A DNA stretch of 24,254 nt from a virus, in UHGV virus genome UHGV-1570564, one strand, 5' to 3'. This document shows, in pieces, positions 3,434-21,853 of this stretch; position 1 is the stretch's first letter; the number at the start of each line of letters is the position of its first letter. The translations under genes were made by a program, and so were the position numbers. The notes beneath the pieces were generated by a model. That model made no database searches and was not told the origin of the DNA. It saw nothing but the letters and a program-made list of their open reading frames with translations.

Positions 3434-3463
3434 GCTTAATTCCTTGGATTAACAAATCGCAAA

Positions 3464-6560: not shown

Positions 6561-6562
6561 AA

Positions 6563-7564
6563 TTAATACCCATTAATTACTCTTCGGACATCAATCGAGG
6601 TGGTATAACCACTAGTCCCAATTGAATGCACAGCTTTCGATATAAGATATTTTCCAGAAAATGAACCGAATCCCTCCAGATTTATAGTTACACCAGCTAC
6701 CAATCTGGTGTCTCCAACCAATACTAAAGATCCGGTATTTTGATATCTATTTTTAAGCCGCAAAGCAGCCTTTGCCTTACGTTTTGCTTCATCTAAATTA
6801 GCTACCAGTTTTCTTATCTTAAGATTCGACCCTTCTTCTACGGATGGATCTACCCAAGTATACGAAAGCGACTTTCTTTTTTTAGGTACGCGATATTTGC
6901 ACGTGCAACTTTTATACAAATCTGTAGATTGTGTGCTAAAGCTATATCTGATTATCTCATCAATACCTAACGTAAGCGTAGCGATAGGATCTTTTTGCTC
7001 AAACATCTCTTGAGCAAATATTATTAATTGGCTATCAGTGACCTTTAACGACAACCCTTCATCCTGGCAAAGTCGATGGAGAAATTTTAAATCGCTTTCC
7101 TCCATTTGATCTTCACGCGCATAATATGGATTACTATCACCATCAATAAGAAACAACAGTTCAAGGTTAGCTAATTTAGCTATAGAAGTTGCTATATCTT
7201 TAAGAGTTGTTTTTTCCCATGCATTACTTTTTAAATCACGTCTAATGCCTGATGAAACAGGAACAGAAACAGCAGTTACCTCAACCACAGAAGGTGGTCC
7301 AGAGCAAGTTATGCCATCTACCTGGAATTTCCCGCACTCAAGGACGATTTGATTTATAGGCTTAAAGCTCAAATCAATAAAATCACCCTTTTTAGGTGTC
7401 CAGTCTCCAGACCATTTCCCATCATCATTTTTTAATATAATAGAAATATCATCGACCTGACCATCTTCATTATCTGTATAAGACATTGACAAAACATCAG
7501 GTGACATATGAGCGGTAATATTTACATTCTGATATATAACATCAAAAAGCGTTTTACGTAACAC
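6563..7564 (-). CDS. gpD-like tail protein / baseplate hub (333 aa)
   Basis: Size and position after tape measure and the LysM gpX-like gene, as in P2 (T-X/U-D) and Mu (gp44). Confidence 0.65.
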   Translation of the reverse strand: MLRKTLFDVIYQNVNITAHMSPDVLSMSYTDNEDGQVDDISIILKNDDGKWSGDWTPKKGDFIDLSFKPINQIVLECGKFQVDGITCSGPPSVVEVTAVSVPVSSGIRRDLKSNAWEKTTLKDIATSIAKLANLELLFLIDGDSNPYYAREDQMEESDLKFLHRLCQDEGLSLKVTDSQLIIFAQEMFEQKDPIATLTLGIDEIIRYSFSTQSTDLYKSCTCKYRVPKKRKSLSYTWVDPSVEEGSNLKIRKLVANLDEAKRKAKAALRLKNRYQNTGSLVLVGDTRLVAGVTINLEGFGSFSGKYLISKAVHSIGTSGYTTSIDVRRVINGY

Positions 7565-7772
7565 TATTGCGTCTCCACGGAGGAAAATTGTTTACTGATA
7601 TTGGCATAACCGGAGCATCAGGAACTTTAAGAATAATTCCCGCAGAAAAAAGCACCGTAAAGCGGTGCTCAGTATTAGCATCAATAAGAAGATAAGACAG
7701 GTACTCATTACCATACAACTTTAAAGCGATACTATCCCATGAGTCCCCTTGAACCGTTCTATAATCATCCAA
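7554..7772 (-). CDS. LysM-domain tail protein, P2 gpX-like (72 aa)
   Basis: YRTVQGDSWDSIALKLYGNEY...ILKVPD matches the LysM pattern; small size and position directly after the tape measure gene. Confidence 0.65.
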   Translation of the reverse strand: MDDYRTVQGDSWDSIALKLYGNEYLSYLLIDANTEHRFTVLFSAGIILKVPDAPVMPISVNNFPPWRRNSVT

Positions 7773-10557
7773 AACTTAATCTCCGTTGTTGGAACATATG
7801 AGCACTCAATTTCTTCTCAAAATCAGAATATCCCGCATCTAATGCTCTTTTAGCTGCCGCCTCAGTTTCCTTTGGTGAACCAGCCGGAAGATTGATTACA
7901 GGTGAATAGGTTATTCCACCAGTCACAGCGTTAACGTTCTGGCGAGGTCCAGAAGTCCCGGCGGCAGATATCCCGTGAGGTGATAAATTTGATTGCCCGA
8001 ACTTGCTTGCTATTGCATTCTGTAAGCTGTTATTCCTGCTAACACCTGATGCCAGAGTAGTCATTATTGCACCACCTGACTTTGTTAGCTGTGAGAATGG
8101 ACCTTTTTTCGCGTCAGAGAACGGTAAATACTCACGTACAGAAGAAAAAACGCCTTTCACTTCATTAATTAAAGCATTTGCTTTTGATTTTATCCCAGTG
8201 ATTAACGTCTCAATTATTTTTGCGCCTGACTCACTCCAGTTTATTCCAGATAAATAAGTCGTTACAGATTGGAATGCTCTTATAAAGAGTCCAACTGGTG
8301 AAAAACGCATAAAAACAGATACCAGTGTATCTATGATTTTCTTTCCTGTTTCGCTCCAGTTAATGCCAGAAAGGTAATTTGTTGTAATTTTAAATGCTTT
8401 AATTAAGAACGGAAGCGGAGACATCCATTTAAAAGCACTAATTAATGTACTGTAAATTCTTACACCTGCCGAACTCCAGTTTATGTTGGAAAGATAATCC
8501 CATGCTTTACCAAACATAGATATAATCCATCCATTGAGGTCAAAGTTTAAGATAAAGTTTTTTATAGCCTCAAATGATTTAACTGTATATTCCTTAACAG
8601 AAGGCCAAACTCTGACAGCATAATCTCTGATCTTATCCCAATTCTGATAGAGCAATATTCCTGCGGCAACCAGCGCAGATATAGCCATCTGAATCCACCC
8701 GAAGGGTGTTAGCTTTGTCGCTACAGATAAAGCCAGCATAGCTACCCTACACGCTATAACCACACTTTTCATGGTTAGAAACGCACCTGCCGCCATCACT
8801 ATCTGAGACACAAAATTGGGGTTGTTAGCTACAAATTCACTAATTTTTGTAATCAGCGGAACCAAAACACTAAGCGCGGCATTCAAAGCAGGTTGCAAGG
8901 CCTGACCAAAACTTAATGATGCATTGCTAGCCTGAATACGTAATTGTTTCAATCGCTCCGCATTATCTTTCGTTATGTTGGCAAAATCGCGGTCAATAAC
9001 AGCACTTCCAGCTCCAAGAGATGTTGCTTTGATTCTCTGGTATTCCTTCCAGTTTTGAATCATCGGACGAACAAAGTTCTGAACCTGCATATCGCCAAAT
9101 AGTTCACCAAGTAACTTCTGATCTCCGTTCTTAGTCATTTTCATGACAGAATGCATTGCAGCTTCGAATGGATTCTTCCCTTTTTTCTGCGCTGTTGTAA
9201 CAATTTTATATAAATCTACACCGAAATTTTTCTTTGCTTTTTTTAGTGTTTCAGGGGAAAGTATTTTTGCCAAAAAGTTGTTCATATTATTAGCAGCCTC
9301 ATCCGAAGTTGCAGCCCCCTTGCGAGCTATCTGCAAAGCTGCACCCATCGTCGCGGCTGCTTCTTTACCTCCCATTTTTAATGCCTGGAACTGAGCACCA
9401 AGCACAGGAAGATTTTTGGCCATATCTTTAAATTCAAAGTTCCCCTCTTTCCCTGCCTGAACCAGAATCCCCATTGCAGACTTCATTTGAGATGGATCAA
9501 TCTTCAATGAGTCACTTAATGTAAATGATGCTTTCGAGACATCGAGGATATCAGAGCCAGTAGCTGTAGCTGTTCGCCCAATAGTTAGTAGATTCGCCTG
9601 AGCCTCTTTATAATCCTGCCCAGCAGCGACGAGAAAACCCTGAGCGGCCTGAATATCAGATGCAAACTGGTTGGTAGCCGTTCCGGTAACAAGCATCGCC
9701 TGCCCCATCGCCTGAACTTCTTCCGGCTTCATATCTGCCGTAAGACCAATCATTTTGTTTTCACGATTGAAATTTGCTGCATTGTTAGCAGCAGCAAATG
9801 CACCAGCCGCTACAGCACCAGTTTGTAATCCTGACCTTACAAGTTGACTCTTTGCCTCACCAAGATGCTCTCGCTTCAATTCACGCTGCCTTTCCAACGC
9901 GCGGTTTAACTCCTCCTGAGCACGTTTTACTGCAAGAACATTTTTCCGTGCTTCAGCCAACGCATTTTTATAGCTGTTAATTTTATCAATACGTTGTTTT
10001 TCTAATGCCCGGTTAAGTTCCTCCTGCTGTTTTTTCACTTGCTGAACATTTGCTCTGGCTAAAGCCAAAGCCGTTCTGTAGCGGTTAACCTGCTCAACGC
10101 TACGGGCCTGAGCCTCACGATTACGATCAATGCTGGCTTTAAGCTCTTTCTCTCTTGAGGCCAAAGCTCTGGCAGATGTATCAGCTCCCTGATAGGCAGA
10201 CTTTAAAGCGGCCAGTTCTTCACGCTGAGAACGTAGTGATGCTCGTAAATTCGATGAATGTGTTTTTGCCTTCTCAAAGTCACGAAGCATCGCTCTGGTT
10301 GGATTGGCCGTGTTTTTTATTTGCTTCTGTAACTCTTCAACGCGAGCGGCAGCTTTATGATATTCGAGGGCAGTCTGTCCAACCTTTACTTTTACAGATT
10401 GTAGCTTTTGAATTTCCCCATGTTCTTTCGTTAATCCAGCAAGCTCGGCATTTAATTTAGCAACAGCCTGATTAGCTGTAGTAAAACTTTTGGGGAGAGA
10501 GGCGGCAACTTTGCCGCCAATTTCAAAAGCCAGCTTAAAGTTCTTATTGCTGGCCAT
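7765..10557 (-). CDS. Tail tape measure protein (930 aa)
   Basis: Largest tail ORF, downstream of the chaperone pair; N-terminal coiled-coil repeats, central Ala/Gly-rich region, hydrophobic segments and C-terminal tandem repeats. Confidence 0.85.
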   Translation of the reverse strand: MASNKNFKLAFEIGGKVAASLPKSFTTANQAVAKLNAELAGLTKEHGEIQKLQSVKVKVGQTALEYHKAAARVEELQKQIKNTANPTRAMLRDFEKAKTHSSNLRASLRSQREELAALKSAYQGADTSARALASREKELKASIDRNREAQARSVEQVNRYRTALALARANVQQVKKQQEELNRALEKQRIDKINSYKNALAEARKNVLAVKRAQEELNRALERQRELKREHLGEAKSQLVRSGLQTGAVAAGAFAAANNAANFNRENKMIGLTADMKPEEVQAMGQAMLVTGTATNQFASDIQAAQGFLVAAGQDYKEAQANLLTIGRTATATGSDILDVSKASFTLSDSLKIDPSQMKSAMGILVQAGKEGNFEFKDMAKNLPVLGAQFQALKMGGKEAAATMGAALQIARKGAATSDEAANNMNNFLAKILSPETLKKAKKNFGVDLYKIVTTAQKKGKNPFEAAMHSVMKMTKNGDQKLLGELFGDMQVQNFVRPMIQNWKEYQRIKATSLGAGSAVIDRDFANITKDNAERLKQLRIQASNASLSFGQALQPALNAALSVLVPLITKISEFVANNPNFVSQIVMAAGAFLTMKSVVIACRVAMLALSVATKLTPFGWIQMAISALVAAGILLYQNWDKIRDYAVRVWPSVKEYTVKSFEAIKNFILNFDLNGWIISMFGKAWDYLSNINWSSAGVRIYSTLISAFKWMSPLPFLIKAFKITTNYLSGINWSETGKKIIDTLVSVFMRFSPVGLFIRAFQSVTTYLSGINWSESGAKIIETLITGIKSKANALINEVKGVFSSVREYLPFSDAKKGPFSQLTKSGGAIMTTLASGVSRNNSLQNAIASKFGQSNLSPHGISAAGTSGPRQNVNAVTGGITYSPVINLPAGSPKETEAAAKRALDAGYSDFEKKLSAHMFQQRRLSFG
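8158..8508 (-). repeat. Three tandem degenerate ~40-aa repeats in the tape measure C-terminal region (YLSGINWSE(T/S)G.KII(D/E)TL...)
   Basis: Protein-level repeats at about aa 684-800, mirrored in the DNA (cactccagtttattccagataaataagtcgttac / gctccagttaatgccagaaaggtaatttgttgt / gaactccagtttatgttggaaagataatccc). Confidence 0.55.
9880..10077 (-). repeat. Duplicated coiled-coil unit in the tape measure N-terminal region (..KKQQEELNRALEKQR.. / ..KRAQEELNRALERQR..)
   Basis: Two similar ~30-aa units at aa 161-226; the DNA shows the matching duplicated stretch (gttaa(c/g)t(c/t)cctcctg...). Confidence 0.5.
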
Positions 10558-10562
10558 TAGTA

Positions 10563-10745
10563 TTAATCCTCATTAAACACGTCAATCCATGCGACGATTC
10601 GCCTCAACCGAAGCGAAAGCCAGTAGGATATAGGTGTTGATTGAGATGATTGAGATAGAGAACTCGCGGCCCTCATTATTTGCTTATCAATAGGTTTTTG
10701 CTCATCAAAACCTACGAGAGCAAAAAATTCTGTACCTTTTGACAA
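10563..10745 (-). CDS. Frameshift extension of the tail assembly chaperone (lambda GT / P2 E+E' analogue), expressed only as a -1 frameshift fusion
   Basis: ORF in the -1 frame relative to 10712..10993, overlapping its 3' end; after a slip at T_TTT_TTG the reading continues ...FFALVGFDEQKPIDKQ.. to a stop 5 nt before the tape measure start. Confidence 0.55.
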   Translation of the reverse strand: MSKGTEFFALVGFDEQKPIDKQIMRAASSLSQSSQSTPISYWLSLRLRRIVAWIDVFNED

Positions 10746-10993
10746 ACTTTAACAAAGTCTTTCGCTGGTAATCCATTCAGATACTCTATTGGACGACCAA
10801 TACAGCGAGCAGCCAAGGCTGCATGGACTTTATTATCAAGTGATGTTTGAACTGAAACATGCCCTTGAGATTGCAGTAAGTCCGATACCTCTAAAATATC
10901 ACTGCCTTTTAGGTTGTCTAAATCAAGGTTGAGTTCAGTCACTGGCTCAAAGTCTTCAAAACGATATTCTTTACTTAATTTAACGGTTTCCAT
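10712..10993 (-). CDS. Tail assembly chaperone, short in-frame product (93 aa; lambda gpG / P2 gpE analogue)
   Basis: Small acidic ORF between tail tube and tape measure genes; ends ...QKVQNFLLS with the slippery heptamer just before its stop. Confidence 0.7.
   Translation of the reverse strand: METVKLSKEYRFEDFEPVTELNLDLDNLKGSDILEVSDLLQSQGHVSVQTSLDNKVHAALAARCIGRPIEYLNGLPAKDFVKVCQKVQNFLLS
10721..10727 (-). other. Putative -1 programmed ribosomal frameshift slippery heptamer T_TTT_TTG
   Basis: Plus strand reads caaaaaa at 10721-10727, so the minus strand reads TTTTTTG. Zero-frame codons CAG AAT TTT TTG CTC TCG TAG; -1 frame continues GCT CTC GTA GGT... Confidence 0.6.
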
Positions 10994-11002
10994 TTTTTCA
11001 CC

Positions 11003-11524
11003 TTATAAACCTAAATCATCACGAACAGTTTTTAATATATCTTCGCCATCAAAGATACAAATAAAGTTCAACTTATCAATTTCTAAGACTTCTTTCCCAT
11101 CAATAAATAATTTGATATAGAGAACTTCGAATTCATTTTCTGAATCAGTGGCCTTTGCTACCTGTAGCGAACCTAAATCCAGTTTTTTAGGGTTTAGCTT
11201 CATTGAAGCCCGAATAGGAACCGTTTTATATTTTCCTGTTCCTGCATCATAAACCTGCTGGCTACCGCGAAAATCTACCTGATGCGATGAGGATAGAAAT
11301 AATTTTGTACCAGCAGAGGTCAGAGTTCGCCATTTAAGAGAGACAGTCATTGGTTTGAAATGCCCCAGCGTTCCGCTCTCAAGCTCTCCAGCGATACCTG
11401 CACCACTAACAGTTTCTGTCATCATCTCAATTGATGGCAGCTTTGCGTCAGCAACACCGATAATACGGTTTCCTTCACCGTATACTGTAAAGTTAATAAG
11501 TCTCTCAGGAATTTGATTGCTCAA
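11003..11524 (-). CDS. Tail tube protein (P2 FII-like, 173 aa)
   Basis: Size and position immediately downstream of the sheath gene and upstream of the chaperone pair. Confidence 0.75.
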   Translation of the reverse strand: MSNQIPERLINFTVYGEGNRIIGVADAKLPSIEMMTETVSGAGIAGELESGTLGHFKPMTVSLKWRTLTSAGTKLFLSSSHQVDFRGSQQVYDAGTGKYKTVPIRASMKLNPKKLDLGSLQVAKATDSENEFEVLYIKLFIDGKEVLEIDKLNFICIFDGEDILKTVRDDLGL

Positions 11525-11540
11525 AGCAACCTCCTATTAT

Positions 11541-13004
11541 TTATTCAGAAAACAAGTTCAGCAGATAATCAGGATTATATTCCATGACGAACTCTATATC
11601 TCTGGCAGGTGAGAATGGTGTCATTTTCACATGGAATTTAACAATCCCGTCCATCAATGACGTAATCGTGTTTTCAGACTGATCAAAGGTAACAACACCA
11701 CCTGCAATATCCTGATTACCAGTGAGGCCGTTAAGCCAAATATTCGCACTAGTAACAATCGATTCAATTAATCGACGGTTTGCAGGATTGTCTATTTTTG
11801 ACCAATGCGAAAGAATTAACGTATTACCCACCCAGTTAAACATACGTCGGCAAACACGAAATGCGTCTTTGGGGTCTGTAGATGTTGGATAAATAGCATT
11901 ACGGTTTCCCCATGATTTCCAACCATCAAAATTAAGGCTTGTTACAATCCCCTGTCCATTTAAGTAGTTTGCCTGGCTAATGTTAAGCCATACCTCACTG
12001 CCATCTTTACGTACAGCACCGTCCATCTGTAGTTTTATATTTGACGGAGAACGTGATGGAATATCACCATACTGACTATCCAGCAAGCATGTTGCTGCCG
12101 CTAAATGGGTTGAGTGATGGTAAATATTGTCACCAAGTTTCACCATCGGCCAGCACACTGTCTGGTTAGCTGCCATATGATTATTGTTCTGCTTCCATTC
12201 AGGAACAGCAGAATAATCACTGATAGTAGATTTATCAGTCGGCGCATCGGTGATAGCTTCTGCTTTGAACAATTCACTAATCAGCGCAGCTTTAGCCGCC
12301 ATTAGCTGGCCAACTTCACTATCAGAACTAAATCCAGGCGCAATCACTTGTCCTGGAACTAGTTTGAAGCGGGGATAAACATCCGACAGTAACTCAAGCC
12401 CCGTATTCGCTTTAGTGTTGGAATCCACGCCACCAATAATATCGTTTTTAGTTACAGCCCCGGGATCAAGATACGTATAACTAACCTTAAGAGTGGCGTC
12501 TTTTTCAGTAACTTTTCCTCCGCTAATAGCGGTAATGACCGTATAGCCATTATCATCCAGCGCCAGTACATAATCTGTATCAACCGTTAACCCTGGAGAA
12601 TCACCATCTGCTTTTTTCACAACAACAGATTTATATAAGACACCATCGTTAGAGAGCGTACCTTTCCCGCCAGAAAGTTTTACTACCTCATCAGTTACGT
12701 CTTTCTTATGCTTTGCTGGATCAAGCACATTGATAAATACAACTGGCGCAACACCATATATTCCAAATGCGACTTTAATTACTTCGCTTAAAGTATATTT
12801 CTCGAAGTTTGTGCTATATCCTATTTTAGATACGGCCTCTGCGTATGTATAAGCAATGATAGGTTTATTTACCGCTGAGGCTGGATCTTCTAACTGATTA
12901 ACAGGAGCTGTACCAAATGCGACAATCAACCCAGCACTAACTTGTACTGGAGGAGTTATAGATGTAGCCAGCTCAGATATATAAATACCGTGGCGATATC
13001 CCAT
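11541..13004 (-). CDS. Contractile tail sheath protein (P2 FI-like, 487 aa)
   Basis: N-terminus MGYRHGIYISELATSITPPVQVSAGLIVAFGTAPV matches the conserved sheath N-terminal pattern (..YHHGV.V.E....); size and position fit. Confidence 0.85.
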   Translation of the reverse strand: MGYRHGIYISELATSITPPVQVSAGLIVAFGTAPVNQLEDPASAVNKPIIAYTYAEAVSKIGYSTNFEKYTLSEVIKVAFGIYGVAPVVFINVLDPAKHKKDVTDEVVKLSGGKGTLSNDGVLYKSVVVKKADGDSPGLTVDTDYVLALDDNGYTVITAISGGKVTEKDATLKVSYTYLDPGAVTKNDIIGGVDSNTKANTGLELLSDVYPRFKLVPGQVIAPGFSSDSEVGQLMAAKAALISELFKAEAITDAPTDKSTISDYSAVPEWKQNNNHMAANQTVCWPMVKLGDNIYHHSTHLAAATCLLDSQYGDIPSRSPSNIKLQMDGAVRKDGSEVWLNISQANYLNGQGIVTSLNFDGWKSWGNRNAIYPTSTDPKDAFRVCRRMFNWVGNTLILSHWSKIDNPANRRLIESIVTSANIWLNGLTGNQDIAGGVVTFDQSENTITSLMDGIVKFHVKMTPFSPARDIEFVMEYNPDYLLNLFSE

Positions 13005-13294
13005 TATTTAATCTCCATGATAGAAGAAGAAACTCTAGAGTACATTACATACTCGACACTGGTTTTATCAGAAAGTCTTTTTTCTGCATCTGAAAAATCA
13101 CTGGTTGCCACAAACAAACACTTTGCACCAGGAATATGTGATATTAATTTTTCACACTCTGGAGATAAGCCATTCTTAAATAGTTTATGCTTCAAAATTG
13201 AGAGTTGAGGGATTGTTGGCCCTATATATACAAATGTTTGAGCAACATCTTCCTTCTTTTCTATATCTTCTTTACTACTTTTCTTATTAGCCAT
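13004..13294 (-). CDS. Hypothetical protein (96 aa), Lys/Glu-rich N-terminus, directly upstream of the sheath gene
   Basis: ORF with start/stop overlap to the sheath gene; AT-rich; no motif I can assign. Confidence 0.4.
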   Translation of the reverse strand: MANKKSSKEDIEKKEDVAQTFVYIGPTIPQLSILKHKLFKNGLSPECEKLISHIPGAKCLFVATSDFSDAEKRLSDKTSVEYVMYSRVSSSIMEIK

Positions 13295-13780
13295 TTAGAT
13301 AAACTCCTGAGACTGAATATTCTGAGGCTTTAATACTAGCCACGTTCCAGTTGCTTCCGTTATCCAATATGGATATGGTTGATCATCAAACATTCGCCAT
13401 CTGATATCACCCTGAAAGAGAAATTTCTCTTCAAGTAAAGGCTTCTCCTGAAAATGAAACATCATCCTTTCAAGAAGAGCCATTACCCATTCATATCCAG
13501 TATGGTCCTCACAAAAACCACCTAGAAGAAACTTAACCTTAACTTCATCCGTTTCAGGCTGCATTCCTCCTTCCGTGGGCCTGATAATCACATGAGGAAA
13601 TTCTGGCGGTTTATCTGGAGATGGTTGTGATTTAGGAGGCAAGTACCCTTTAAATATTGTTGGAACAAACAATTTAATATCGCTGTCTGTTTCATCATAA
13701 GGAGGCCCCTGCACTAATAAATCATGGAAAACCTCATGTTCCAACCGATTTTTTATTGCATCTATCAAAAGATTAATCAA
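13295..13780 (-). CDS. Hypothetical protein (161 aa), possible neck/tail completion protein
   Basis: Position between the head-tail connector ORF and the tail sheath gene; translationally coupled (overlap 13777-13780). Function by synteny only. Confidence 0.4.
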   Translation of the reverse strand: MINLLIDAIKNRLEHEVFHDLLVQGPPYDETDSDIKLFVPTIFKGYLPPKSQPSPDKPPEFPHVIIRPTEGGMQPETDEVKVKFLLGGFCEDHTGYEWVMALLERMMFHFQEKPLLEEKFLFQGDIRWRMFDDQPYPYWITEATGTWLVLKPQNIQSQEFI

Positions 13781-14121
13781 ATCGGCATTCCTCTGTTAGT
13801 ATTAACAGTGAGAGTTATTTCCAATACACCAACATTATCTGATACTTCATCAACAATATAATTTTTACCGTTGATTTTCATTGACTGGTCTTTGACAGGG
13901 AGAACAGGAAAATCTTTTCTTGAAACAAATAATATTATTTGCCCCTGATTTATTCCCTCTGCAAACTCAGCATATGAGCGTTTATTCCGCTCATGAATAA
14001 GGTCTGTATCAATAACGGCAAGGATATCCTTGCCGTCTATGTTATATGTATCGGCAAACTCTTTTTCATTGAGGAATATTGCAGAAATATCTTGCGCTAT
14101 AACCTCTTTGAAGGAGTTCAT
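13777..14121 (-). CDS. Putative head-tail joining / head closure protein (114 aa, lambda FII-like placement)
   Basis: Size and position downstream of the capsid gene; C-terminal NGKNYIVDEVSDNVGVLEITL pattern loosely resembles head-tail adaptor proteins. Confidence 0.45.
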   Translation of the reverse strand: MNSFKEVIAQDISAIFLNEKEFADTYNIDGKDILAVIDTDLIHERNKRSYAEFAEGINQGQIILFVSRKDFPVLPVKDQSMKINGKNYIVDEVSDNVGVLEITLTVNTNRGMPI

Positions 14122-14513
14122 TACTTCTTATTACCTTTTTTTTGCGTTGATTTTTTCGCATTACTGGTATCAGAAGTAGCTACAGATTCAGATGAATCAT
14201 CAGCAACCATTTCCTCATTGCCGCCATCATCCTCAAACTCAACCTCGAATACACAGCTACCCGCCTCCGTTCGCGTAATCAACCCCGCGTCCACAGCATC
14301 ATTAACAGCAGATGCGTATCCATGCTCAAAAGCTAACTTAGCAGCATCATAGCCCCCAGCCGATGCCAAATCACCATCCTCTTCGGTGGCAATAGCATGT
14401 CCTGACGCAATCAGTTCGGCAATTCTGGAGTTATCCATTAGCCCATTAAGCAAACGGCCCGCTTTTAGCGAGCCGTGGCTTATCGTATCAATGTTTTTAA
14501 TCAGTCTGGCCAT
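14121..14513 (-). CDS. Hypothetical acidic protein (130 aa) immediately downstream of the major capsid gene
   Basis: ORF abutting the capsid gene (capsid stop 14514, this start 14513); acidic C-terminal half (EVEFEDDGGNEEMVADDSSE) and Lys-rich tail. Placement corresponds to lambda FI but I see no convincing sequence match. Confidence 0.4.
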   Translation of the reverse strand: MARLIKNIDTISHGSLKAGRLLNGLMDNSRIAELIASGHAIATEEDGDLASAGGYDAAKLAFEHGYASAVNDAVDAGLITRTEAGSCVFEVEFEDDGGNEEMVADDSSESVATSDTSNAKKSTQKKGNKK

Positions 14514-15557
14514 TTAAACCACCTTAGCCACCAGATAGGCATCAGCCACACCAGGATTAGGCAGTGGAGATGACTTCATGGCAACATAACGGCCAGCCGG
14601 CTTACGAGTTACCCAGGTGTCTGGAACTCGTGGTGACTCAACAATCGTTAGAGTCTTTTCGGCGTCATCTACAAGCTCTACAGCACCATACAGCATCGTT
14701 CCTCGACCAGGAGAGCCAAAGAGGATCTTATCTTCCGGTACTAATGGTTCAGGTTTTCCTGTTTTATCATTGCGAATAAGTTCGTCGTAACCATAAAAAT
14801 CGACACCTTCAAGATTGCCATAATGAGTTACGCCTTCTTCTAACTCTTTAGGCTCAATATACCCAAGCTCTTTTCGGCGATTATCAAGATATTTAGTTAC
14901 TGCTTCATTTTTAACGAAGGCATCAACAACTTTTGCGCCCATTACGGCAACACGAGGTGTAAAACCTGAAGTTAGTGATACCCGACGTTTCCAGTTGCGA
15001 ACATTGACTAACGGATCTGATTTTGCTGCACTCCATAAATCATCACCTGTCAGTTCAAGATATGGTTTATCTCCTTCCTCTTCAGGCCAAAAATAAACTG
15101 TGTCATCCACTCCTTCACCAACAATATCAACCTGCCCCGTAAACAAGACTTGTGCACACATCCATTCTTCACGGCGGTTAACCATTTCATCAAGCTCAAG
15201 CAAATCTTTACCTAATTGCTCGGCGGCTCGTTCTGCTGGCGATTTTGCGTTGTAAATATTCTCACCCGGAAGCCTGTTTAAAAGCAGCTCGGCTGTTGTT
15301 ACCAAATCAGGTGCAACAAGTGGTGGCTCCAGAGTTCTCGTTACAAAGCCGCGTCGCTCAACGGTTTTTGAGCCAAAACCTTTACCAACAAACGGAGCCA
15401 TAGTACGGCCACCGCGAACAAAATCCAGATCAACTTTCTTTGTATTAAAGGTCTGAACACCAGGAAAAAAGGTACGAAGAAGAAAACGACGAGCCTTGAA
15501 ATTCTGAATAACAGGCTCAAGCATCGTACGTCGTTCAAAAATATCAATATTCGGCAT
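14514..15557 (-). CDS. Major capsid protein, lambda gpE family (347 aa)
   Basis: Size and position after protease and decoration genes in a lambda-ordered head module; N-terminal region has the character of gpE-type capsid proteins. Confidence 0.8.
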   Translation of the reverse strand: MPNIDIFERRTMLEPVIQNFKARRFLLRTFFPGVQTFNTKKVDLDFVRGGRTMAPFVGKGFGSKTVERRGFVTRTLEPPLVAPDLVTTAELLLNRLPGENIYNAKSPAERAAEQLGKDLLELDEMVNRREEWMCAQVLFTGQVDIVGEGVDDTVYFWPEEEGDKPYLELTGDDLWSAAKSDPLVNVRNWKRRVSLTSGFTPRVAVMGAKVVDAFVKNEAVTKYLDNRRKELGYIEPKELEEGVTHYGNLEGVDFYGYDELIRNDKTGKPEPLVPEDKILFGSPGRGTMLYGAVELVDDAEKTLTIVESPRVPDTWVTRKPAGRYVAMKSSPLPNPGVADAYLVAKVV

Positions 15558-15577
15558 AAAAATACGACCTCTTTATA

Positions 15578-15961
15578 TTATGCAGATGGATTTTGTTGTG
15601 CGGTATTAAGGAATATTCCAACCTTCCGGCAAGCCAGATATACATCGGCAACTTTTGCTGATTCAGGAAGGATAACCGCATGTGCATTGAACATTCCGGT
15701 CAGCCATGCTGTTCCGACTTGCGCTGAATCAGTCGCATCAATATTGTGTTGAGCGATACAATACGGTTCTTTTGCCTCCCCTTCACCAGAGAGATTTATT
15801 GGCGCCACAGTGACAACATTTGTTGTCTGATCAATACTGACAAAAGCAAGTAACTCACCCCGTTTTACTTTACCGCTGGCAAGTTTAATACTTGTTGGAA
15901 TTGCTGGCATACCACCAGAAATAATCAGATTATCTGGTTCAAATGAAAAAGACTCTCGCAT
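15578..15961 (-). CDS. Putative head decoration protein (127 aa, lambda gpD-like placement)
   Basis: Small ORF between protease/scaffold and major capsid genes; only weak pattern resemblance to gpD. Confidence 0.45.
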   Translation of the reverse strand: MRESFSFEPDNLIISGGMPAIPTSIKLASGKVKRGELLAFVSIDQTTNVVTVAPINLSGEGEAKEPYCIAQHNIDATDSAQVGTAWLTGMFNAHAVILPESAKVADVYLACRKVGIFLNTAQQNPSA

Positions 15962-15970
15962 AAACTCACC

Positions 15971-17059
15971 TTAATTTTTATCGCGGTTTTTAAATACTGA
16001 CCCAATAACATTTTTTACTGCTTCAGCCTGTTTGTTGCCGTTGTTTTCTGGTTGATTAACATCAACTGAATCATTCACCTCACTTGCGTCTTCTTGCCGT
16101 TGATTAAGAAAGTTTTTGTTACGCGCTCGCTCTGCATTCATAATTTCCAAAGCAAGTTCAGCCGCAGAAACTCCTGTTTTGAATTTTGCATTCTTAACCA
16201 GGTCGTCATGACCAGGAATCACGCTATTCTCGATTGTTTCAATGCGCTCGCGTTCTGATTTAACGCCCTCGTCTTTACCAGCATTAAAAACCTGATTGTA
16301 TAATTCTGGATATTTATTTTTTAATTCATCAAGAGTCACAATATCGTCCTCATTTTGTTCATTTGATTCAGTAGATAACTCATTTTTATTTTGCGGCAAC
16401 TTTGCGAGTGAATCAGGTAATTTTGAAAACCTTGATGCTTCAAAAGTTATTCCATTAAGCGAAAGCATCCCTTCCTTTATAGAAGCGGATAAGCGTATTG
16501 GTTTTTCAACTTCGTCAGCAAATCCAAGCTCTACAGCCTCTTCTGCATTTAGCCATGTTTCCTGATCCATTAGTTCAATTAATTTATCCTCAGAAAGCCC
16601 TGTTTTCTCCTTATATGCAGATAAAATACTATTGCGTATCTTATCCATCATCTCAGCAATATCACGCAATTCATCCGCATCGCCAGCAGCAAATGTCCAC
16701 GGATTATGGATCATCATCATAGCATTAGATGGGATAATAGTTTTATCACCCGCCATTGCAATAATAGTTGCAGCCGATGCAGCAATCCCGTCGATATAAA
16801 CCGTAATATTCGCCTTATGACGCTTTAATGATGAAAGAATAGCTTGAGCAGTAAAAACAGAACCACCATAACTATTAATTTTTACGTTGATAGTATTTGA
16901 TGAAATATCCTTTAATTTATTAACTATGTCAGAAGAAGAAACCTCATCAAATTCACCAATATACCCGTAAATTAAAAGTTCAGCCGGAGAGTCATCTTCA
17001 CCCGTGCTATTTTTTATTTCCCACCAATTAGGCATCATCAGTCTCCATATTTTGTTCAT
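15971..17059 (-). CDS. Prohead maturation protease, ClpP-like, with C-terminal scaffold-like extension (362 aa)
   Basis: SYGGSVFTAQAIL...YIDGIAASAATIIAMAG...MMMIHNPW resembles the ClpP/S14-type phage head protease core; charged C-terminal tail; overlaps the portal gene 3' end. Confidence 0.75.
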   Translation of the reverse strand: MNKIWRLMMPNWWEIKNSTGEDDSPAELLIYGYIGEFDEVSSSDIVNKLKDISSNTINVKINSYGGSVFTAQAILSSLKRHKANITVYIDGIAASAATIIAMAGDKTIIPSNAMMMIHNPWTFAAGDADELRDIAEMMDKIRNSILSAYKEKTGLSEDKLIELMDQETWLNAEEAVELGFADEVEKPIRLSASIKEGMLSLNGITFEASRFSKLPDSLAKLPQNKNELSTESNEQNEDDIVTLDELKNKYPELYNQVFNAGKDEGVKSERERIETIENSVIPGHDDLVKNAKFKTGVSAAELALEIMNAERARNKNFLNQRQEDASEVNDSVDVNQPENNGNKQAEAVKNVIGSVFKNRDKN

Positions 17060-18602
17060 TTACCTCAGAAACAGGAGGTGTAATAAGCCCCAACTCACGG
17101 CGAGCATTCTCTTCTCTGCCACAGATTTGTGCGGTTTCTTCCCAGTTAAGACCTGACATTTCAGCCGCTTCTTTTTCACGGGTAGAGAATGTTTCCTCAA
17201 CACGCAGTTTTGCAGCTTTGACTTCTTTAAGGGGATCTAATTGGCCTTGTGATGGGCCATACCATTGAGCGCCACTCCATGCAGCGCGATATTCAGGCCC
17301 ATAAAAAAAACCAGGGGCAATAACACGACCTTTAGCAACGGCTTCGGCCAACCATTCCTCATAGATCGGTTGGCAAAATGACTGAACCATCCAGTCACGT
17401 CGCATACGGAACATTTTCCAGGCTTCAAGTAATGCGGCCCTGCTTGCGCTATAACTTGCTGTAAAATGCTTTACCAAGAGTTCGTAAGGGAGTTCTAAAG
17501 CAGCCCCAATTTGACGGCATATGGCGACAACAAAACCATCAAATGCCGTATTTGGTCGCCCGGGATTTGCTGTATCTATCGACTCACCTTCACCCAAACT
17601 TACTATGGAGCCATTCCCCATTTCTTGGGTGTTATCATCATGGTTATCGATCTGCTCGTACTGAGGGATACCCGATTCACCGACTGGCCCATCAGGAGCG
17701 TCTGTTTTAATAAAGACAGTAAACATCCCTGACACAACCGCAGCAACCAATTCAGCATCGGTGTATCGTCCTAACTGCTTCAATGCTTCAATTACAGGAG
17801 CAAGGACAGGAACGCCACGGCGTTGCCCAGGCCTTTCAAAATCCTGCATGACATGCAGAATATTTCTTCTTCCTGTTTTACTCCCATATGCGGGAATACG
17901 TTCCCACTTGCGGGTTACAAAACCAGAAGTCCCGGCTGGGTGATGTTTTGCAACCCAGTACGCCACAGGCTCGCTAAATTCACCAACCTCTACGCCACCG
18001 TAAAGATTTGGTATAAAACGATCCTCTGGATTGCAAACACGATCACCTTCAATTAAATAGACGCACAAATCATATATAACACCCTTACGCTTAATAACTG
18101 GTAGCGCAGCAAATATATCGCCAGATGTTAACGCAGATATTTGGACCAATGATTGCAATTGTCCAAAAGTACACATTCTTGATGCATCACAATTTGGAGA
18201 ATCAGCCCATAATCTAAACTCACGCTCAACATGCTTTTCCCATGCTCGCGCTTCTTCCTGCGTCATCCCCAAGAAATCGGCATCAATGTTCGCATTTAGT
18301 TTTAAACCGGAACCAACAACGTTTGTCCTGATAGTTTTTATTGCGCCAACAGATAGCGGGTTTCCCATGAAGAGATCACGAGAACGCTCACGCAATTTAT
18401 CTATATTTTTAACAATATCATCATCAGGAGAACCAGCTTTACTAAACCAACCCCTTAATGATTTTTTATGAGTGCTTGCACCATGACGTGAATATCCAAG
18501 GTTATTAATACCTTCAAGTGCTTCTAACCGTTTTCTTGCCAAAGCTCGATTTAATGCCCTCTGAGGTGAAAACGGCGCAATAACTCGATCAAGAATATTC
18601 AT
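17028..18602 (-). CDS. Portal protein, lambda gpB family (524 aa)
   Basis: Size and position after large terminase and gpW-like genes in the lambda order A-W-B-C-D-E; acidic C-terminus. Confidence 0.8.
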   Translation of the reverse strand: MNILDRVIAPFSPQRALNRALARKRLEALEGINNLGYSRHGASTHKKSLRGWFSKAGSPDDDIVKNIDKLRERSRDLFMGNPLSVGAIKTIRTNVVGSGLKLNANIDADFLGMTQEEARAWEKHVEREFRLWADSPNCDASRMCTFGQLQSLVQISALTSGDIFAALPVIKRKGVIYDLCVYLIEGDRVCNPEDRFIPNLYGGVEVGEFSEPVAYWVAKHHPAGTSGFVTRKWERIPAYGSKTGRRNILHVMQDFERPGQRRGVPVLAPVIEALKQLGRYTDAELVAAVVSGMFTVFIKTDAPDGPVGESGIPQYEQIDNHDDNTQEMGNGSIVSLGEGESIDTANPGRPNTAFDGFVVAICRQIGAALELPYELLVKHFTASYSASRAALLEAWKMFRMRRDWMVQSFCQPIYEEWLAEAVAKGRVIAPGFFYGPEYRAAWSGAQWYGPSQGQLDPLKEVKAAKLRVEETFSTREKEAAEMSGLNWEETAQICGREENARRELGLITPPVSEVNEQNMETDDA

Positions 18603-18838
18603 AAATCTCTTATCACCACTCGTTTAATTCGTGGGCCTCGGCGTACACCTGCTGATAATCTTTCTACTTCATTACGCCAGTAATCCATCTCTTTTCTGAC
18701 TTCTGATAAATCCGCACGAGTTAACTGCCGCGTACCAAATTTATATGACTGACCGCCAATAGCAATAGCGCGATATGCTTCCCGCCAGACAGATAACATC
18801 TCTCTGGCTTCAGTCAGAGAAAATGCTTCATTGTTCAT
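18599..18838 (-). CDS. gpW-like head-tail joining protein (79 aa)
   Basis: Small ORF between terminase and portal; pattern ..L.EAREML......GGQSY.FGTR.LTRADL.EV..E...W..EVERL....RRGP parallels lambda gpW including the conserved RRGP near the C-terminus. Confidence 0.65.
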   Translation of the reverse strand: MNNEAFSLTEAREMLSVWREAYRAIAIGGQSYKFGTRQLTRADLSEVRKEMDYWRNEVERLSAGVRRGPRIKRVVIRDL

Positions 18839-18849
18839 TTATATTTCCT

Positions 18850-20706
18850 CTATATGGTTACGCCTTTACTTATAACTCTACGGCGTCTTCTACGTATACC
18901 TGACGAGTTCTGCACATACACATTACCTCGCATTTCCTGTTCGGCAAGCCAGTTAAAATTAGGGTTCAGAATTTCCATCGCGGCAGTTGCATAGTTACGG
19001 CAATCAAGAGGCTCGTTACGCTCGTAGACTTTCACCCACTTTTCTTTTGTCTGCCCATTTTTATATTCAAATATTTTTTTCTCTGATAATAATCCTTTAA
19101 AGTATTCGGTATCATATCCTCTGTCAGAATCTAATGGGAAATGCATATAACCAGGACCAGGATCATGTAGTTTAATTCTTGCCATGATGGTCCCTTTACC
19201 ATCATCAACCCCCAAATTAAACAACATAGCACCCACACGGTTATTATTACTTGGCTTTCCTATAAATGGTAAACCTACCCCACCACGCCCCCTGATAGAG
19301 TATATTCGCCTTGATTCTCTCGGCTTAGTAAAGCGATATACCTCTGTCGTAAAATGCCCACCAGAGTCAATACAAACGGAAGAAATCTGTAATTTTCGAC
19401 CGTCACGGAATGACCAGCTACGGAGTAAGTATTCATCAAGTTGTTTCCAGACAACATCTTGTGCGGGATCACCTGGGAATATTTTATATTCTATCCCCCA
19501 TGACTCCTTACCTTTTCCCCAACCGACCAATTCACAAACTAAATACGTGTCCTGTACGTCAACACCAGCACTTAACAATAAAACATCATCTGGTAAAAAC
19601 TCTTCAAACCTTATTCTGCGTTGCAACAAGTATTCAGGATCGATATCGTCTTTAGCATCCTCTTTCCATGGCTCACCCAGCTTAAGGTTAATAAACTCCA
19701 TTAATCCATTTTTATCGCGGTTTCTGGTTGCTTCCGTAAATTCTTCAACCAGCTCTGACAATGCAACCCACGGGGAGTAAAGACTGTTAATATGAAAACC
19801 AACAATACCTTTAACTCCAGTATGTTCAGCTATCCATACCCCCTTCGCCAACCAATCAACGTCTGGTTTACCAGATCCGCGCATAATCCCGCCGCACTCA
19901 CAGCACTCATATCTGGCCGTTTCCGGTAACGCCTCACCTGAATCGCTCTTATCCCATCTGACTTGCGACCATTTCATCACCTGCATGGTGCCACAACATG
20001 GGCAAGGAACATGGTAGTAACGCTGATCGGAGAGCTTAAACCACTTGTGGATTTTGCTTGTTTCCTCCAAAACAGGAGTAGAAACAAAAACTTTCTTACG
20101 ATTATGAAAGTTGGTAGTACGCTGAATACCTAGTTTTAGTGGGTCGCCCTCCTGCGTCACACCGTAACGATCAATCTCATCAGCTAACAGTATTCGAATT
20201 GGCCTGGATGCAAGACCTGCTGGGGAATTAGCACCAACAAGTGCTATATATCCACCAGCGTAATGCTTCATACGTATAGTCGTGCTGGACTTTTTGGCTG
20301 CACCGCGCCCCTCTTTCCCTTCATGCAGCTTGTGTTTCAAACCAGGGGAATATTTGAACGTCGGATCAATACGCTCTTTTGAAAAAGCCTCAGCCGCCTC
20401 TACCGTTGGATAAATCATCAACTGAGGAGATGGCTCCTGATCTGCAAAGTAACCCATAACATTTAGCTGTAATTCGGATTTACCAATTTGCGAGCTACAT
20501 TGCATCACTACTGTTTCTGTATCAGCGTCACCAATAACATCCATTGGTTCACGCAAATATGGCACTCGGCTTGTACGCCACGGCCCTGGCTCTGGAGACG
20601 TTCCCGGCGCTACATGACGATACTTATCAGCCCATTCGGAAACAGTTAGCCGTGATTTAGGGCGAAGCGCACGGAAAAAAGCGGTGCTCCATACTGTTTC
20701 GCCCAT
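18850..20706 (-). CDS. Terminase large subunit, lambda GpA type (618 aa)
   Basis: Size and N-terminus (..RLTVSEWADKYR..) consistent with GpA-family terminases; followed by gpW-like and lambda-family portal genes. Confidence 0.85.
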   Translation of the reverse strand: MGETVWSTAFFRALRPKSRLTVSEWADKYRHVAPGTSPEPGPWRTSRVPYLREPMDVIGDADTETVVMQCSSQIGKSELQLNVMGYFADQEPSPQLMIYPTVEAAEAFSKERIDPTFKYSPGLKHKLHEGKEGRGAAKKSSTTIRMKHYAGGYIALVGANSPAGLASRPIRILLADEIDRYGVTQEGDPLKLGIQRTTNFHNRKKVFVSTPVLEETSKIHKWFKLSDQRYYHVPCPCCGTMQVMKWSQVRWDKSDSGEALPETARYECCECGGIMRGSGKPDVDWLAKGVWIAEHTGVKGIVGFHINSLYSPWVALSELVEEFTEATRNRDKNGLMEFINLKLGEPWKEDAKDDIDPEYLLQRRIRFEEFLPDDVLLLSAGVDVQDTYLVCELVGWGKGKESWGIEYKIFPGDPAQDVVWKQLDEYLLRSWSFRDGRKLQISSVCIDSGGHFTTEVYRFTKPRESRRIYSIRGRGGVGLPFIGKPSNNNRVGAMLFNLGVDDGKGTIMARIKLHDPGPGYMHFPLDSDRGYDTEYFKGLLSEKKIFEYKNGQTKEKWVKVYERNEPLDCRNYATAAMEILNPNFNWLAEQEMRGNVYVQNSSGIRRRRRRVISKGVTI

Positions 20707-20711
20707 GAGGT

Positions 20712-21263
20712 TTATTCTTCCTGCTTAATAAATCGGGATTCCTGGAGCGCCTGAAGCGCAAAATTAATCTCGTCTTCAATAATGCGCTCGATCTCCCTGG
20801 CTGTTTTGCCTTCACAACGGGGAGCTGCTCTTGGAGCAATACTAAATAAGCGGCTACGCAATTCATTAGCTGCCAGAAATGCATCATCCCTGACCGCATC
20901 TTTAGCGATGAGAGAGCCTTCCTTTTCTTCAAATTCAAGGCGTTTCAGCTTTGCCTGATAAATTTTTTCTGCGGTCTTAGCCTTGTTGAATTGCACCGCA
21001 ACACCGGAAGTACCACCAGCTAATCCGGCATCATCAGCGGGTAACTCTGGTTGTTCCGAAGATATCCCATGCCCTCTTTTTCCATTTTCAGCAGATACCT
21101 CACGACCAACCTGTCGGCTCGCTTCATAAGCCGCACTGGCTTTATCAAAATCCAGCTTGCCGCTTTTCAGCACTGGAATGCGACCGGAACGACAGAGCTT
21201 CGTAACCATTGCCGGAGAAATACCTTTCCGGCGGGCAAACTCTGACTTACTGACGATGGCCAT
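20712..21263 (-). CDS. Terminase small subunit, Nu1-like with N-terminal helix-turn-helix
   Basis: MAIVSKSEFARRKGISPAMVTKLCRSGRIPVLKSGK parallels the lambda Nu1 N-terminus. Preferred start is ATG 21263..21261, overlapping the ParB-like stop as TAATG; the ORF track start at 21272 is a TTG. Confidence 0.7.
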   Translation of the reverse strand: MAIVSKSEFARRKGISPAMVTKLCRSGRIPVLKSGKLDFDKASAAYEASRQVGREVSAENGKRGHGISSEQPELPADDAGLAGGTSGVAVQFNKAKTAEKIYQAKLKRLEFEEKEGSLIAKDAVRDDAFLAANELRSRLFSIAPRAAPRCEGKTAREIERIIEDEINFALQALQESRFIKQEE

Positions 21264-21853
21264 TACTTGCAACCATTAGCAAGATACTGAACAAATCCCT
21301 CATGCGTTTCATGCGCGTCGTGGTACTGACGATAAACATCCAGCAACAATGCAATTTCCATATCCGTCGCGGGAATACGTTCTTTATCAATAGCCAGGTA
21401 CTTAATTTGAACAACAGGGGAAGAATTATCGTCTTCTTCCTGCGGCTGTTCATCGCTTAACATTTCGTCAAGCTCTGCATCATTAAACCCAAGCAGATCA
21501 ATATCAAAATCATCATCCATTAACTCTTTGACTTCTTCGGCCAGAAGCTGCATATCCCAGCCAGCATTTAAGGCCAGCTTGTTATCTGCAATCCTGTAAG
21601 CCTTCTTCTGTTTTTCAGAAAGGTTACTCAACCGAATCGCCGGAACTTTATCCATTTCCAGAATTTCGGCTGCTGCAAGCCGCCCATGCCCCGCAATCAG
21701 TTCATTCTTTTCATCGATCAGCACAGGATTAGTGAAACCGAACTCACGGATACTGTTCACCAACTGTTCAACTTGCTCATCTGAATGAGTCCGTGAATTT
21801 TTGGCATATCTGAGCAACTTACCGACTGGTAAATATTCGATTTTTAGAGCCAT
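21263..21853 (-). CDS. ParB-like nuclease-domain (ParB/Srx fold) protein, standalone, 196 aa
   Basis: NSRTHSDEQVEQLVNSIREFGFTNPVLIDEKNELIAGHGRLAAAEILEMDKVPA matches the ParB N-terminal domain signature (..GHGRL.AA..); acidic C-terminal half; stop overlaps the small terminase start. Confidence 0.75.
   Translation of the reverse strand: MALKIEYLPVGKLLRYAKNSRTHSDEQVEQLVNSIREFGFTNPVLIDEKNELIAGHGRLAAAEILEMDKVPAIRLSNLSEKQKKAYRIADNKLALNAGWDMQLLAEEVKELMDDDFDIDLLGFNDAELDEMLSDEQPQEEDDNSSPVVQIKYLAIDKERIPATDMEIALLLDVYRQYHDAHETHEGFVQYLANGCK

Follow-up and report, generated by a model that had tools for sequence, protein, structure and literature searches.

How a head encoded in the lambda order comes to be joined to a contractile tail is the question raised by a viral stretch of 24,254 nucleotides (UHGV virus genome UHGV-1570564; hereafter, the window). 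The original prediction placed a lambda-type head and packaging module beside a P2-like tail, and held that four small ORFs at the junction, here called J130, J114, J161 and J96 after their lengths in amino acids, must adapt a lambda connector to that tail. The gene order and coordinates were correct, with every ORF on the minus strand exactly where predicted (Table 1).

Table 1. Head, neck and tail genes of the window
Feature	Coordinates	Strand	Basis
Small terminase subunit	20712..21272	-	phrog_57, 7e-42; sits in Nu1 position
Large terminase, lambda GpA type	18850..20706	-	GpA_ATPase, ~1e-76 to 7e-76; GpA_nuclease, 1e-84
Small head-tail adaptor, gpW position	18599..18838	-	DUF6148, 7e-16; phrog_118 head-tail adaptor, 7e-29
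Portal, lambda family	17028..18602	-	Phage_portal_2, 7e-101
ClpP-type head maturation protease	15971..17059	-	CLP_protease, 2e-32; phrog_94, 6e-81
Head decoration protein	15578..15961	-	phrog_49 head decoration, 3.6e-25
Major capsid protein, lambda gpE family	14514..15557	-	Phage_cap_E, 1.5e-55
J130, small acidic protein in lambda Fi slot	14121..14513	-	phrog_5541, full length, 8.5e-79
J114, putative head-closure / head-tail joining protein (lambda gpFII-like, Hc1)	13777..14121	-	phrog_2551, 3e-45; phrog_82 'head closure Hc1', 3.6e-5
J161, predicted tail terminator (fold as gpU, Tc1, gp15)	13295..13780	-	Predicted structure
J96, small conserved protein	13004..13294	-	Between terminator and sheath; phrog_4089
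Tail sheath	11541..13004	-	phrog_23 tail sheath, 2.8e-96; pyocin R2 sheath PA0622, ~5e-15 (5.3e-15)
Tail tube, P2 FII family	11003..11524	-	Phage_tube FII, 5e-44
Tail assembly chaperone pair, programmed -1 frameshift site	10563..10993	-	Phage_TAC_7; phrog_3140
Tape measure and P2-family baseplate genes X, D, V, U, W/gp25, J, I	3464..10557	-	PhageMin_Tail, Phage_tail_X, Phage_GPD, Phage_base_V, Phage_P2_GpU, GPW_gp25, Baseplate_J, Tail_P2_I

To establish the identity of the element, we compared the head-neck-tail region with deposited genomes. It was 99.9-100% identical at the nucleotide level to Escherichia phages and to E. coli plasmids of ~47-49 kb. Escherichia phage vB_EcoM-613R2 matched it at 99.9%, and Yersinia phages vB_YpM_39/41/44 at 98.5%. 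All four junction ORFs recurred, at 98.5-100% nucleotide identity, in vB_EcoM-613R2 and vB_EcoM-473R2, in the three Yersinia phages and in ~60-70 E. coli plasmids of 47-49 kb (e.g. NZ_CP032259.1 and NZ_LR130559.1), and the phage and plasmid records of the vB_EcoM-613R2 type showed no relevant difference from the window. The element occurs in 72 complete E. coli genomes, and 76 of its 77 places there are plasmids. The full plasmid encodes RepA, ParA and lysis genes, and near-identical genomes are on deposit as phages whose stated host is Yersinia pestis EV76-CN. These records label the four junction ORFs as hypothetical, apart from an 'ATP-binding sugar transporter' in one record. The head-neck-tail module thus belongs to an E. 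coli phage-plasmid that had already been sequenced, and does not represent a new chimera. Very probably, it comprises the ordinary structural genes of a known temperate myovirus, which exists as a circular plasmid of ~47-49 kb in E. coli and relatives, and forms a long-standing, co-evolving block rather than a recent fusion.

In the head module, the proposed lambda order was borne out by the GpA terminase, the lambda-family portal and the gpE capsid, whereas the labels 'Nu1-like' and 'gpW' proved to be positional only. The small terminase had no Pfam Nu1 match and reached only E=0.41 against lambda Nu1 in BLASTP; the small adaptor showed neither BLASTP similarity to lambda gpW nor a Pfam gpW signal. 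The ClpP-like and decoration-like labels also held, but by Pfam the two proteins do not belong to the lambda gpC and gpD families. The window protease is of the ClpP type, unlike lambda gpC with its S49 peptidase annotation, and scored below the Pfam cut-off for Peptidase_S49; the decoration protein reached 19.5 bits against Pfam HDPD, under the 29.1-bit cut-off.

The tube and baseplate genes belong to P2 families, as predicted. By contrast, the sheath matched no Pfam sheath model even at E<=10, and the tail genes run in the order sheath-tube-chaperone-tape measure-X-D-V-U-W-J-I-fibre, with the fibre gene at the downstream end, which differs from the tail gene order of P2. The head also is not of the P2 type. 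In the chaperone region, an in-phase slippery sequence, T TTT TTG, at 10727-10721 leads into a 60-aa ORF.

We then examined the four junction ORFs. All are preceded by Shine-Dalgarno-like sequences, and their stops and starts abut or overlap, indicating that they are real genes. None had an above-threshold Pfam match, and to that extent they lack a clear family signature, as had been claimed; however, all four matched PHROG families over their full length (5541, 2551, 2581 and 4089). The order of J114, J161 and J96 is kept in ~40 related loci, whereas J130 occurs only in the enterobacterial ones.

J114 showed a weak BLASTP match to lambda FII (30% over 66 aa, E=0.004) and aligned with it in hhalign at E=0.0014 over 64 columns, with a probability of only 17%. 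Against Pfam Phage_attach it scored 15.8 bits (E=0.021), short of the gathering cut-off of 26 bits, and a profile search of PDB sequences gave no match. The gene follows the capsid gene and the Fi slot and precedes Ne1/Tc1, and the gene at this position in Faecalibacterium phage FP_Epona carries the PHROG-2551 label and an Hc1 annotation. Four sub-threshold signals, weak but convergent, suggest that J114 is a lambda FII-like/Hc1 head-closure protein.

For J161, the predicted model (pLDDT 74.6, moderate confidence) adopted the terminator fold of lambda gpU, SPP1 gp17 (Tc1) and T4 gp15, and several recent cryo-EM myovirus neck entries ranked among its structural matches in the PDB library. Its gene is flanked by the head-completion genes on one side and the tube and sheath genes on the other, as in all relatives. 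No curated terminator family in Pfam matched J161, hhalign against lambda gpU was negative, and Pvc16_N-type caps gave only E=0.1. Taken together, the modelled fold and the gene position indicate that J161 is probably the tail terminator. [quoted passage not shown] Of the four proteins thought to be novel adaptors, two thus appear to be usual components of a Type-1 neck, one for head closure (FII-like) and one for tail termination, and the claim that all four must adapt the connector to the tail was not sustained.

If the neck is built like those of lambda, SPP1 and solved myoviruses, the lambda-family portal would bind the small adaptor encoded at the gpW position, and J114 would plug and extend this connector. 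On the separately assembled tail, a J161 ring would cap tube and sheath and offer a docking face to the FII-like ring. No special adaptor would be needed in such a neck, because the interface between FII-like protein and terminator is the same in siphoviruses and myoviruses. Type-1 necks are common to both groups, gain or loss of the sheath is common, and a myovirus with a gpW-like adaptor and bona fide Hc1 and Tc1 is already on record (Lopes et al. 2014, PMC4362835).

Set against lambda (Nu1-A-W-B-C-D-E-Fi-FII-Z-U-V), the window shares the GpA terminase, the portal family, the gpE capsid and probably the FII-like protein, as well as a small adaptor gene between terminase and portal and a small variable gene after E. 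It differs in having a sheath gene and the 96-aa gene between terminator and tube, in a tube of the P2 FII family instead of gpV, and in a small terminase, adaptor and J130 that have no detectable similarity to Nu1, gpW and Fi. Compared with the Virfam 'Type 1 neck' (adaptor, Hc1, Ne1, Tc1), the window has an Hc1-like gene and a predicted Tc1, in the canonical order, ahead of sheath and tube. What Virfam does not describe is the additional conserved gene that the window lineage has between Tc1 and sheath; FP_Epona, annotated Ad1/Hc1/Ne1/Tc1, likewise has a J96-family gene in this place, ahead of its sheath gene.

A natural head swap between two related loci (L035 and L036) revealed how these genes are inherited. 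Between the two, the large terminase is only 25% and the portal 22% identical, and the capsid and protease have no match, whereas J114, J161 and J96 were inherited with the tail (J96 at 72% identity). Therefore, the module boundary lies just upstream of the FII-like gene, and J96 belongs to the tail module.

J130 lies on the other side of this boundary, directly after the capsid stop codon. Although its length (130 aa) is close to that of lambda Fi (132 aa), neither J130 nor five of its homologues had a Pfam match, whereas lambda Fi matches Packaging_FI at 5e-59, and BLASTP between J130 and lambda Fi was negative; membership of Packaging_FI was accordingly ruled out. Only 38 relatives were found, and every named one is enterobacterial. 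Conservation is confined to residues 1-45 and 60-95, followed by a variable acidic/Ser-rich stretch ending in a basic tail (residues 96-130 are low-complexity). The X29-type Vibrio phages carry an unrelated Rho_N-domain protein in the same slot, with no profile link to J130. J130 is thus clade-restricted, and the variable slot it occupies is inherited with the head. Going only by position and co-inheritance, it is most likely a lineage-specific or dispensable accessory on the head and packaging side.

The curiosities that remain are the 96-aa family and a neck that lacks gpZ. J96 (phrog_4089/17039; 197 representative clusters) has no Pfam family. It lies between terminator and sheath in every informative locus, and its stop codon overlaps the start of the sheath gene. 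The structure predicted for it, a confident model (pLDDT 78), has no structural neighbour among the solved phage parts in the PDB library. From its position and co-inheritance only, J96 would most likely work where terminator and sheath meet, at the proximal end of the tail, serving as a structural collar or an assembly factor. A bolder reading is that J96, and possibly J130, are undescribed structural neck parts (a collar or sheath-capping subunit), which would add layers to the neck beyond the canonical adaptor, head-closure and terminator rings. The strict placement, the overlapping reading frames, the co-inheritance with the tail, the size of the family and the unmatched fold are consistent with such a role. 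On the other hand, the library that we searched included many recent cryo-EM myovirus necks and none contained anything like J96; an equally fitting role for a protein this small, with a disordered, Lys-rich N-terminus, would be that of a chaperone or regulator; and J130 is clade-restricted and partly low-complexity. We therefore regard this reading as possible but rather unlikely.

Relatives carry a true Pfam Minor_tail_Z gene (1e-12 to 1e-18) between the FII-like and terminator genes, and therefore follow the lambda order E-Fi slot-FII-Z-terminator through the neck. In the window and in the whole plasmid, by contrast, neither tblastn nor an HMM search of all six frames detected gpZ/Ne1, indicating that the window clade has lost gpZ. 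Nearly all Type-1 necks have gpZ/Ne1 (Lopes et al. 2014, PMC4362835), which is also part of the Virfam definition, so the neck of this clade is not fully canonical. The loss might be read as decay, with the module a defective prophage remnant or tailocin-like gene set, and lambda Z mutants do yield particles of low infectivity (PMC4362835). However, the head, packaging, tail and lysis genes are complete, intact and tightly packed, and the Z-less arrangement is kept with intact ORFs across clades ~15-35% apart in protein sequence (L011 and others). Together with the deposition of near-identical genomes as phages with a named host, these observations make decay very unlikely. It is conceivable, though rather unlikely, that the J96 family is an undescribed new-fold component at the terminator-sheath junction of a widespread Type-1-neck myovirus lineage and that the enterobacterial phage-plasmid clade shows that the neck works without gpZ/Ne1. 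If so, another protein has perhaps taken over the role of gpZ/Ne1 in this clade.

Finally, we asked how far the head-tail combination extends beyond the closest relatives. About 35 viral loci had this head-neck-tail order, with head and tail diverging in parallel, as did Vibrio phages X29, phi 2, Rostov 7 and vB_VpaM_XM1 and Paenibacillus phage Lily; FP_Epona and metagenomic contigs have the neck and tail order in common. Identity across the block was 84-91% in enterobacterial relatives and 47-66% in X29. The four Vibrio phages (proposed 'Weiviridae', PMC11432961) share the gene order all the way from the ParB-like nuclease and the terminase to the baseplate, with 43% identity for J114, 35-39% for J161, 32-33% for J96 and 50-54% for the sheath. 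Unlike the window, they have a gpZ homologue, placed between the FII-like gene and the terminator gene. Their genomes are recorded as linear and include an integrase; vB_VpaM_XM1 is a TEM-confirmed myovirus described as strongly lytic (PMC11432961). Because the block co-diverges as a unit across distant hosts, the combination of a lambda-type head with a contractile tail is ancient and standard. One lineage thus carries the whole arrangement as its norm, which largely matches what the original prediction had named as evidence against itself, although this lineage is poorly described at the protein level and functional assignments cover only two of the four ORFs.

The families named in that prediction, a lambda-type head and a P2-type tube and baseplate, were correct, but the chimera drawn from them was not supported. 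A recent recombination between a lambdoid siphovirus head and a P2-like tail, with the four small ORFs as newly recruited adaptors, would fit the mixed families, the head swapping that does occur in this group and the two junction ORFs without known family or fold, but it is extremely improbable and already largely refuted: head and tail identities drop in parallel among relatives (84-91% down to 31-49%), phages of Proteobacteria and Firmicutes (Lily) have the full combination and FP_Epona its neck and tail part, J114 and J161 appear to be standard neck parts inherited, like J96, with the tail, J130 is missing from most relatives, and GC content is 0.36-0.45 on either side, with no step from the capsid gene to the sheath gene.

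All head, packaging and tail genes of the window lie on the minus strand, in the order and at the positions that the original prediction had assigned to them (table below). Its labels Nu1-like and gpW hold for the positions of two small genes, whose products showed no detectable resemblance to the lambda proteins of those names: the small terminase matched phrog_57, and the 79-aa product of the gene that separates terminase from portal matched DUF6148/phrog_118 'head-tail adaptor'. The protease is of the ClpP type, whereas that of lambda is of the S49 type. The four small junction ORFs between capsid and sheath genes, named J130, J114, J161 and J96 after the lengths of their products, are tightly packed and have ribosome-binding sites, with stops and starts abutting or overlapping.

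Features of the window and gpZ-related features of related loci
Feature	Position	Strand	Assignment or remark
ParB N-terminal-domain protein with methyltransferase domain	23146-24219	-	second, larger ParB-type protein
239-aa protein	22410-23129	-	phrog_1924 'minor tail protein', 2.8e-97
ParB-like nuclease	21263-21853	-	directly upstream of small terminase
Large terminase, GpA-type		-	Pfam/PHROG
Portal, lambda-family		-	Pfam/PHROG
Protease, ClpP-type		-	Pfam/PHROG
Decoration protein		-	PHROG only; Pfam HDPD below cut-off
Capsid protein, gpE-family		-	Pfam/PHROG
J130	14121-14513	-	slot ORF, most likely head or packaging side
J114	13777-14121	-	most likely FII-like head-closure protein
J161	13295-13780	-	tail terminator
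J96	13004-13294	-	most likely proximal tail end
Sheath, downstream of the four small ORFs		-	phrog_23; related to pyocin R2 sheath
Tube, P2 FII-family, next after sheath		-
Assembly chaperone, after tube	10563-10993	-	contains in-phase -1 slippery site
Slippery heptamer T TTT TTG	10721-10727	-	inside chaperone gene
Tape measure protein, then P2-family X, D, V, U, W, J, I baseplate genes		-
Tail fibre	536-3433		Phage_fiber_2 repeats and collar domain
gpZ homologue, related locus L003	9165-9734
gpZ homologue, related locus L035	6206-6763
gpZ homologue, related locus L044	2959-3531
Apparent gpZ-terminator fusion, metagenome-assembled contig L047	573-1607		344 aa; artefact

This arrangement had been read as a special chimera, in which four novel adaptors were needed to join the head to the tail. 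That reading is not supported; the combination is standard in a sequenced and partly imaged lineage. The full order (terminase, adaptor, portal, ClpP, decoration, capsid E, small slot ORF, FII-like protein, ~187-aa protein, terminator, J96, sheath and tube) is common to about 35 viral contigs, the Vibrio phages X29 and vB_VpaM_XM1, and Paenibacillus phage Lily, and several metagenomic contigs show the same order for the parts they cover. In Faecalibacterium phage FP_Epona, it is shared from the slot ORF onward, and the capsid and protease arrangement before it differs. A scan of genome contigs returned a single distant locus only. vB_VpaM_XM1 is a myovirus, as confirmed by TEM (PMC11432961). 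The ~187-aa protein is a true homologue of lambda gpZ (Pfam Minor_tail_Z, 1e-12 to 1e-18), indicating that the lambda order E-Fi-FII-Z-U runs on through the neck; relative to this order, the sheath and J96 are additions. Identities of head and tail proteins to those of the window drop together across relatives, as seen for locus L011 (TerL 88%, portal 86%, capsid 84%, sheath 84% and tube 91%) and for X29 (63%, 66%, 47%, 54% and 57%, respectively), which argues against a recent fusion. The interface between head and tail is likewise not a special one: it is the Type-1 neck common to siphoviruses and myoviruses (PMC4362835).

J161 is the tail terminator. Its terminator fold was obtained by structure prediction; the C-terminus, which was poorly modelled, ends in a conserved acidic-hydrophobic tip. 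J114 is most likely the FII-like head-closure protein, as judged from weak but concordant sequence matches: 15.8 bits to Pfam Phage_attach, the lambda FII family (threshold, 26 bits); 3.6e-5 to phrog_82 'head closure Hc1'; and 30% identity to lambda FII over 66 residues in BLASTP (pairwise E=0.004). In hhalign, the family profile of J114 matched lambda FII over the same C-terminal region (E=0.0014), and the FP_Epona gene at this position carries the same PHROG label as J114 and is annotated Hc1.

The boundary between head and tail modules was revealed by comparison of two related loci, L035 and L036. On the tail side, identity was 93% for the sheath, 88% for the tube, 85% for the terminator, 83% for gpZ, 72% for J96 and 55% for the FII-like protein. 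By contrast, identity dropped to 25% for the large terminase and 22% for the portal, and the protease, capsid and slot ORF had no match. Because the head genes are diverged or unmatched while neck and tail remain similar, the exchange point can be placed immediately ahead of the FII-like gene, and the pair constitutes a natural head swap. The FII-like protein, gpZ, the terminator and J96 move with the tail; the slot ORF goes along with the head. Of the tail-side proteins, the FII-like one has diverged most, in keeping with its need to match the head.

Judged by position and co-inheritance, the most likely site of action of the remaining two junction proteins is the head or packaging side for J130 and the proximal tail end for J96. 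In every informative context, the J96 gene is flanked immediately by the terminator gene on one side and the sheath gene on the other; for structure prediction, a deep alignment of its family was built from a representative search. The start of J130 directly follows the capsid stop codon, and J130 is similar in position and size range to lambda Fi (132 aa). It is not a member of Packaging_FI, and its identity as a diverged Fi or an X29-type slot protein was rejected on the negative outcomes of BLASTP, Pfam and hhalign. We found 38 relatives of J130, and all of the named ones are enterobacterial. J130 has two conserved segments (residues 1-45 and 60-95), after which come a variable region that is acidic and rich in Ser/Thr and, finally, a basic tail. 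PDB profile matches to Fae and Avd were taken as noise, since they map to its region of biased composition. In relatives, the slot is filled by small proteins that are unrelated to J130 and carry DUF7210 and/or Rho_N domains, and L036 encodes a cement protein immediately upstream of its FII-like gene.

The window's enterobacterial clade differs from its distant relatives in lacking gpZ. In every distant relative, a gpZ homologue (Minor_tail_Z) is encoded between the FII-like and terminator genes, whereas in the window these two genes overlap by 4 nt (13777-13780), and neither tblastn nor a six-frame HMM search detected a homologue in the window or the whole 49.9-kb plasmid. No displaced gpZ was found elsewhere on the plasmid: PHROG and Pfam scans of its ten largest hypothetical proteins returned only phrog_1924 'minor tail protein', the meaning of which is unclear. 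The apparent fusion in L047 is an assembly artefact, its sequence being interrupted by X residues at a scaffold gap. According to Lopes et al. (PMC4362835), nearly all Type-1 necks contain gpZ (Ne1), which matters for infectivity; the clade thus departs from the Type-1 canon, yet near-identical genomes are deposited as phages.

Beyond the gene identities, conservation, terminator fold, module boundary and gpZ absence shown here, we infer assembly steps by analogy with lambda, SPP1 and solved necks of myoviruses (PMC4362835). The portal, the small adaptor and an FII-like ring would complete the head; a terminator ring would cap the tube and sheath and dock onto the FII-like ring; and the C-terminus of the terminator may reach into the sheath, as in phage XM1. 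The neck structure of this last phage (7KJK) serves as a mechanistic analogy only. It was considered as a solved relative and rejected, as it belongs to a different Vibrio phage 'XM1' (portal, 412 aa; tape measure, 479 aa; host, V. rotiferianus), and PDB sequence searches with the vB_VpaM_XM1 terminator and the window's sheath did not match it.

The element is a phage-plasmid. A full plasmid copy (NZ_CP032259.1) encodes RepA, ParA, a toxin-antitoxin pair (RelE/ParE) and lysis genes. The same copy carries regulators, three ParB/Srx-domain proteins and tRNA-Ile. Circular plasmids of 47-49 kb that are 98-100% identical to the region occur in 72 of 5,426 complete E. coli genomes. Among phages, the region shares 99.9% identity with Escherichia phage vB_EcoM-613R2 and 98.5% with Yersinia phages vB_YpM_39/41/44; near-identical genomes are deposited as phages with Yersinia pestis EV76-CN as the named host. 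The element is absent from the ten curated phage-plasmid types of tyPPing, and membership of the pSLy3 group was rejected, this being an SSU5-type siphovirus group of 85-134 kb. We found no literature specific to the Yersinia phages or the plasmid type.

The chimera claim as made matters little: textbook phage biology includes head-tail mosaicism and a neck interface that siphoviruses have in common with myoviruses, and the exact sequence is already in public databases. Of more use are the functional labels tail terminator, FII-like head-closure protein and chaperone frameshift, which can be added to genes left as hypothetical in about 70 plasmid records of E. coli, together with L035/L036 as a clean natural example of a head/tail exchange site. 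Two further points of modest note are the conserved 96-aa protein encoded beside the sheath gene and the gpZ-less neck.

The slippery heptamer of the chaperone gene is canonical and lies nine nucleotides (three codons) ahead of the chaperone stop. The -1 frame runs on into a 60-aa ORF, an arrangement resembling lambda G/GT and P2 E/E+E'. GC content rises from about 0.38 to 0.48-0.51 across the tail-fibre gene (window 1-3000 versus 3001-9000), which suggests that the fibre was acquired separately from the remaining tail module. The 239-aa protein, encoded upstream of the ParB-like nuclease and small terminase genes, matched no Pfam family. Its 'tail' label is doubtful, because its homologues in Pseudomonas and alphaproteobacterial siphophages are encoded at genome ends beside the terminase. 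The larger ParB-type gene lies further upstream, and the arrangement of ParB-like nuclease and small terminase is kept in Vibrio phages X29 and vB_VpaM_XM1.
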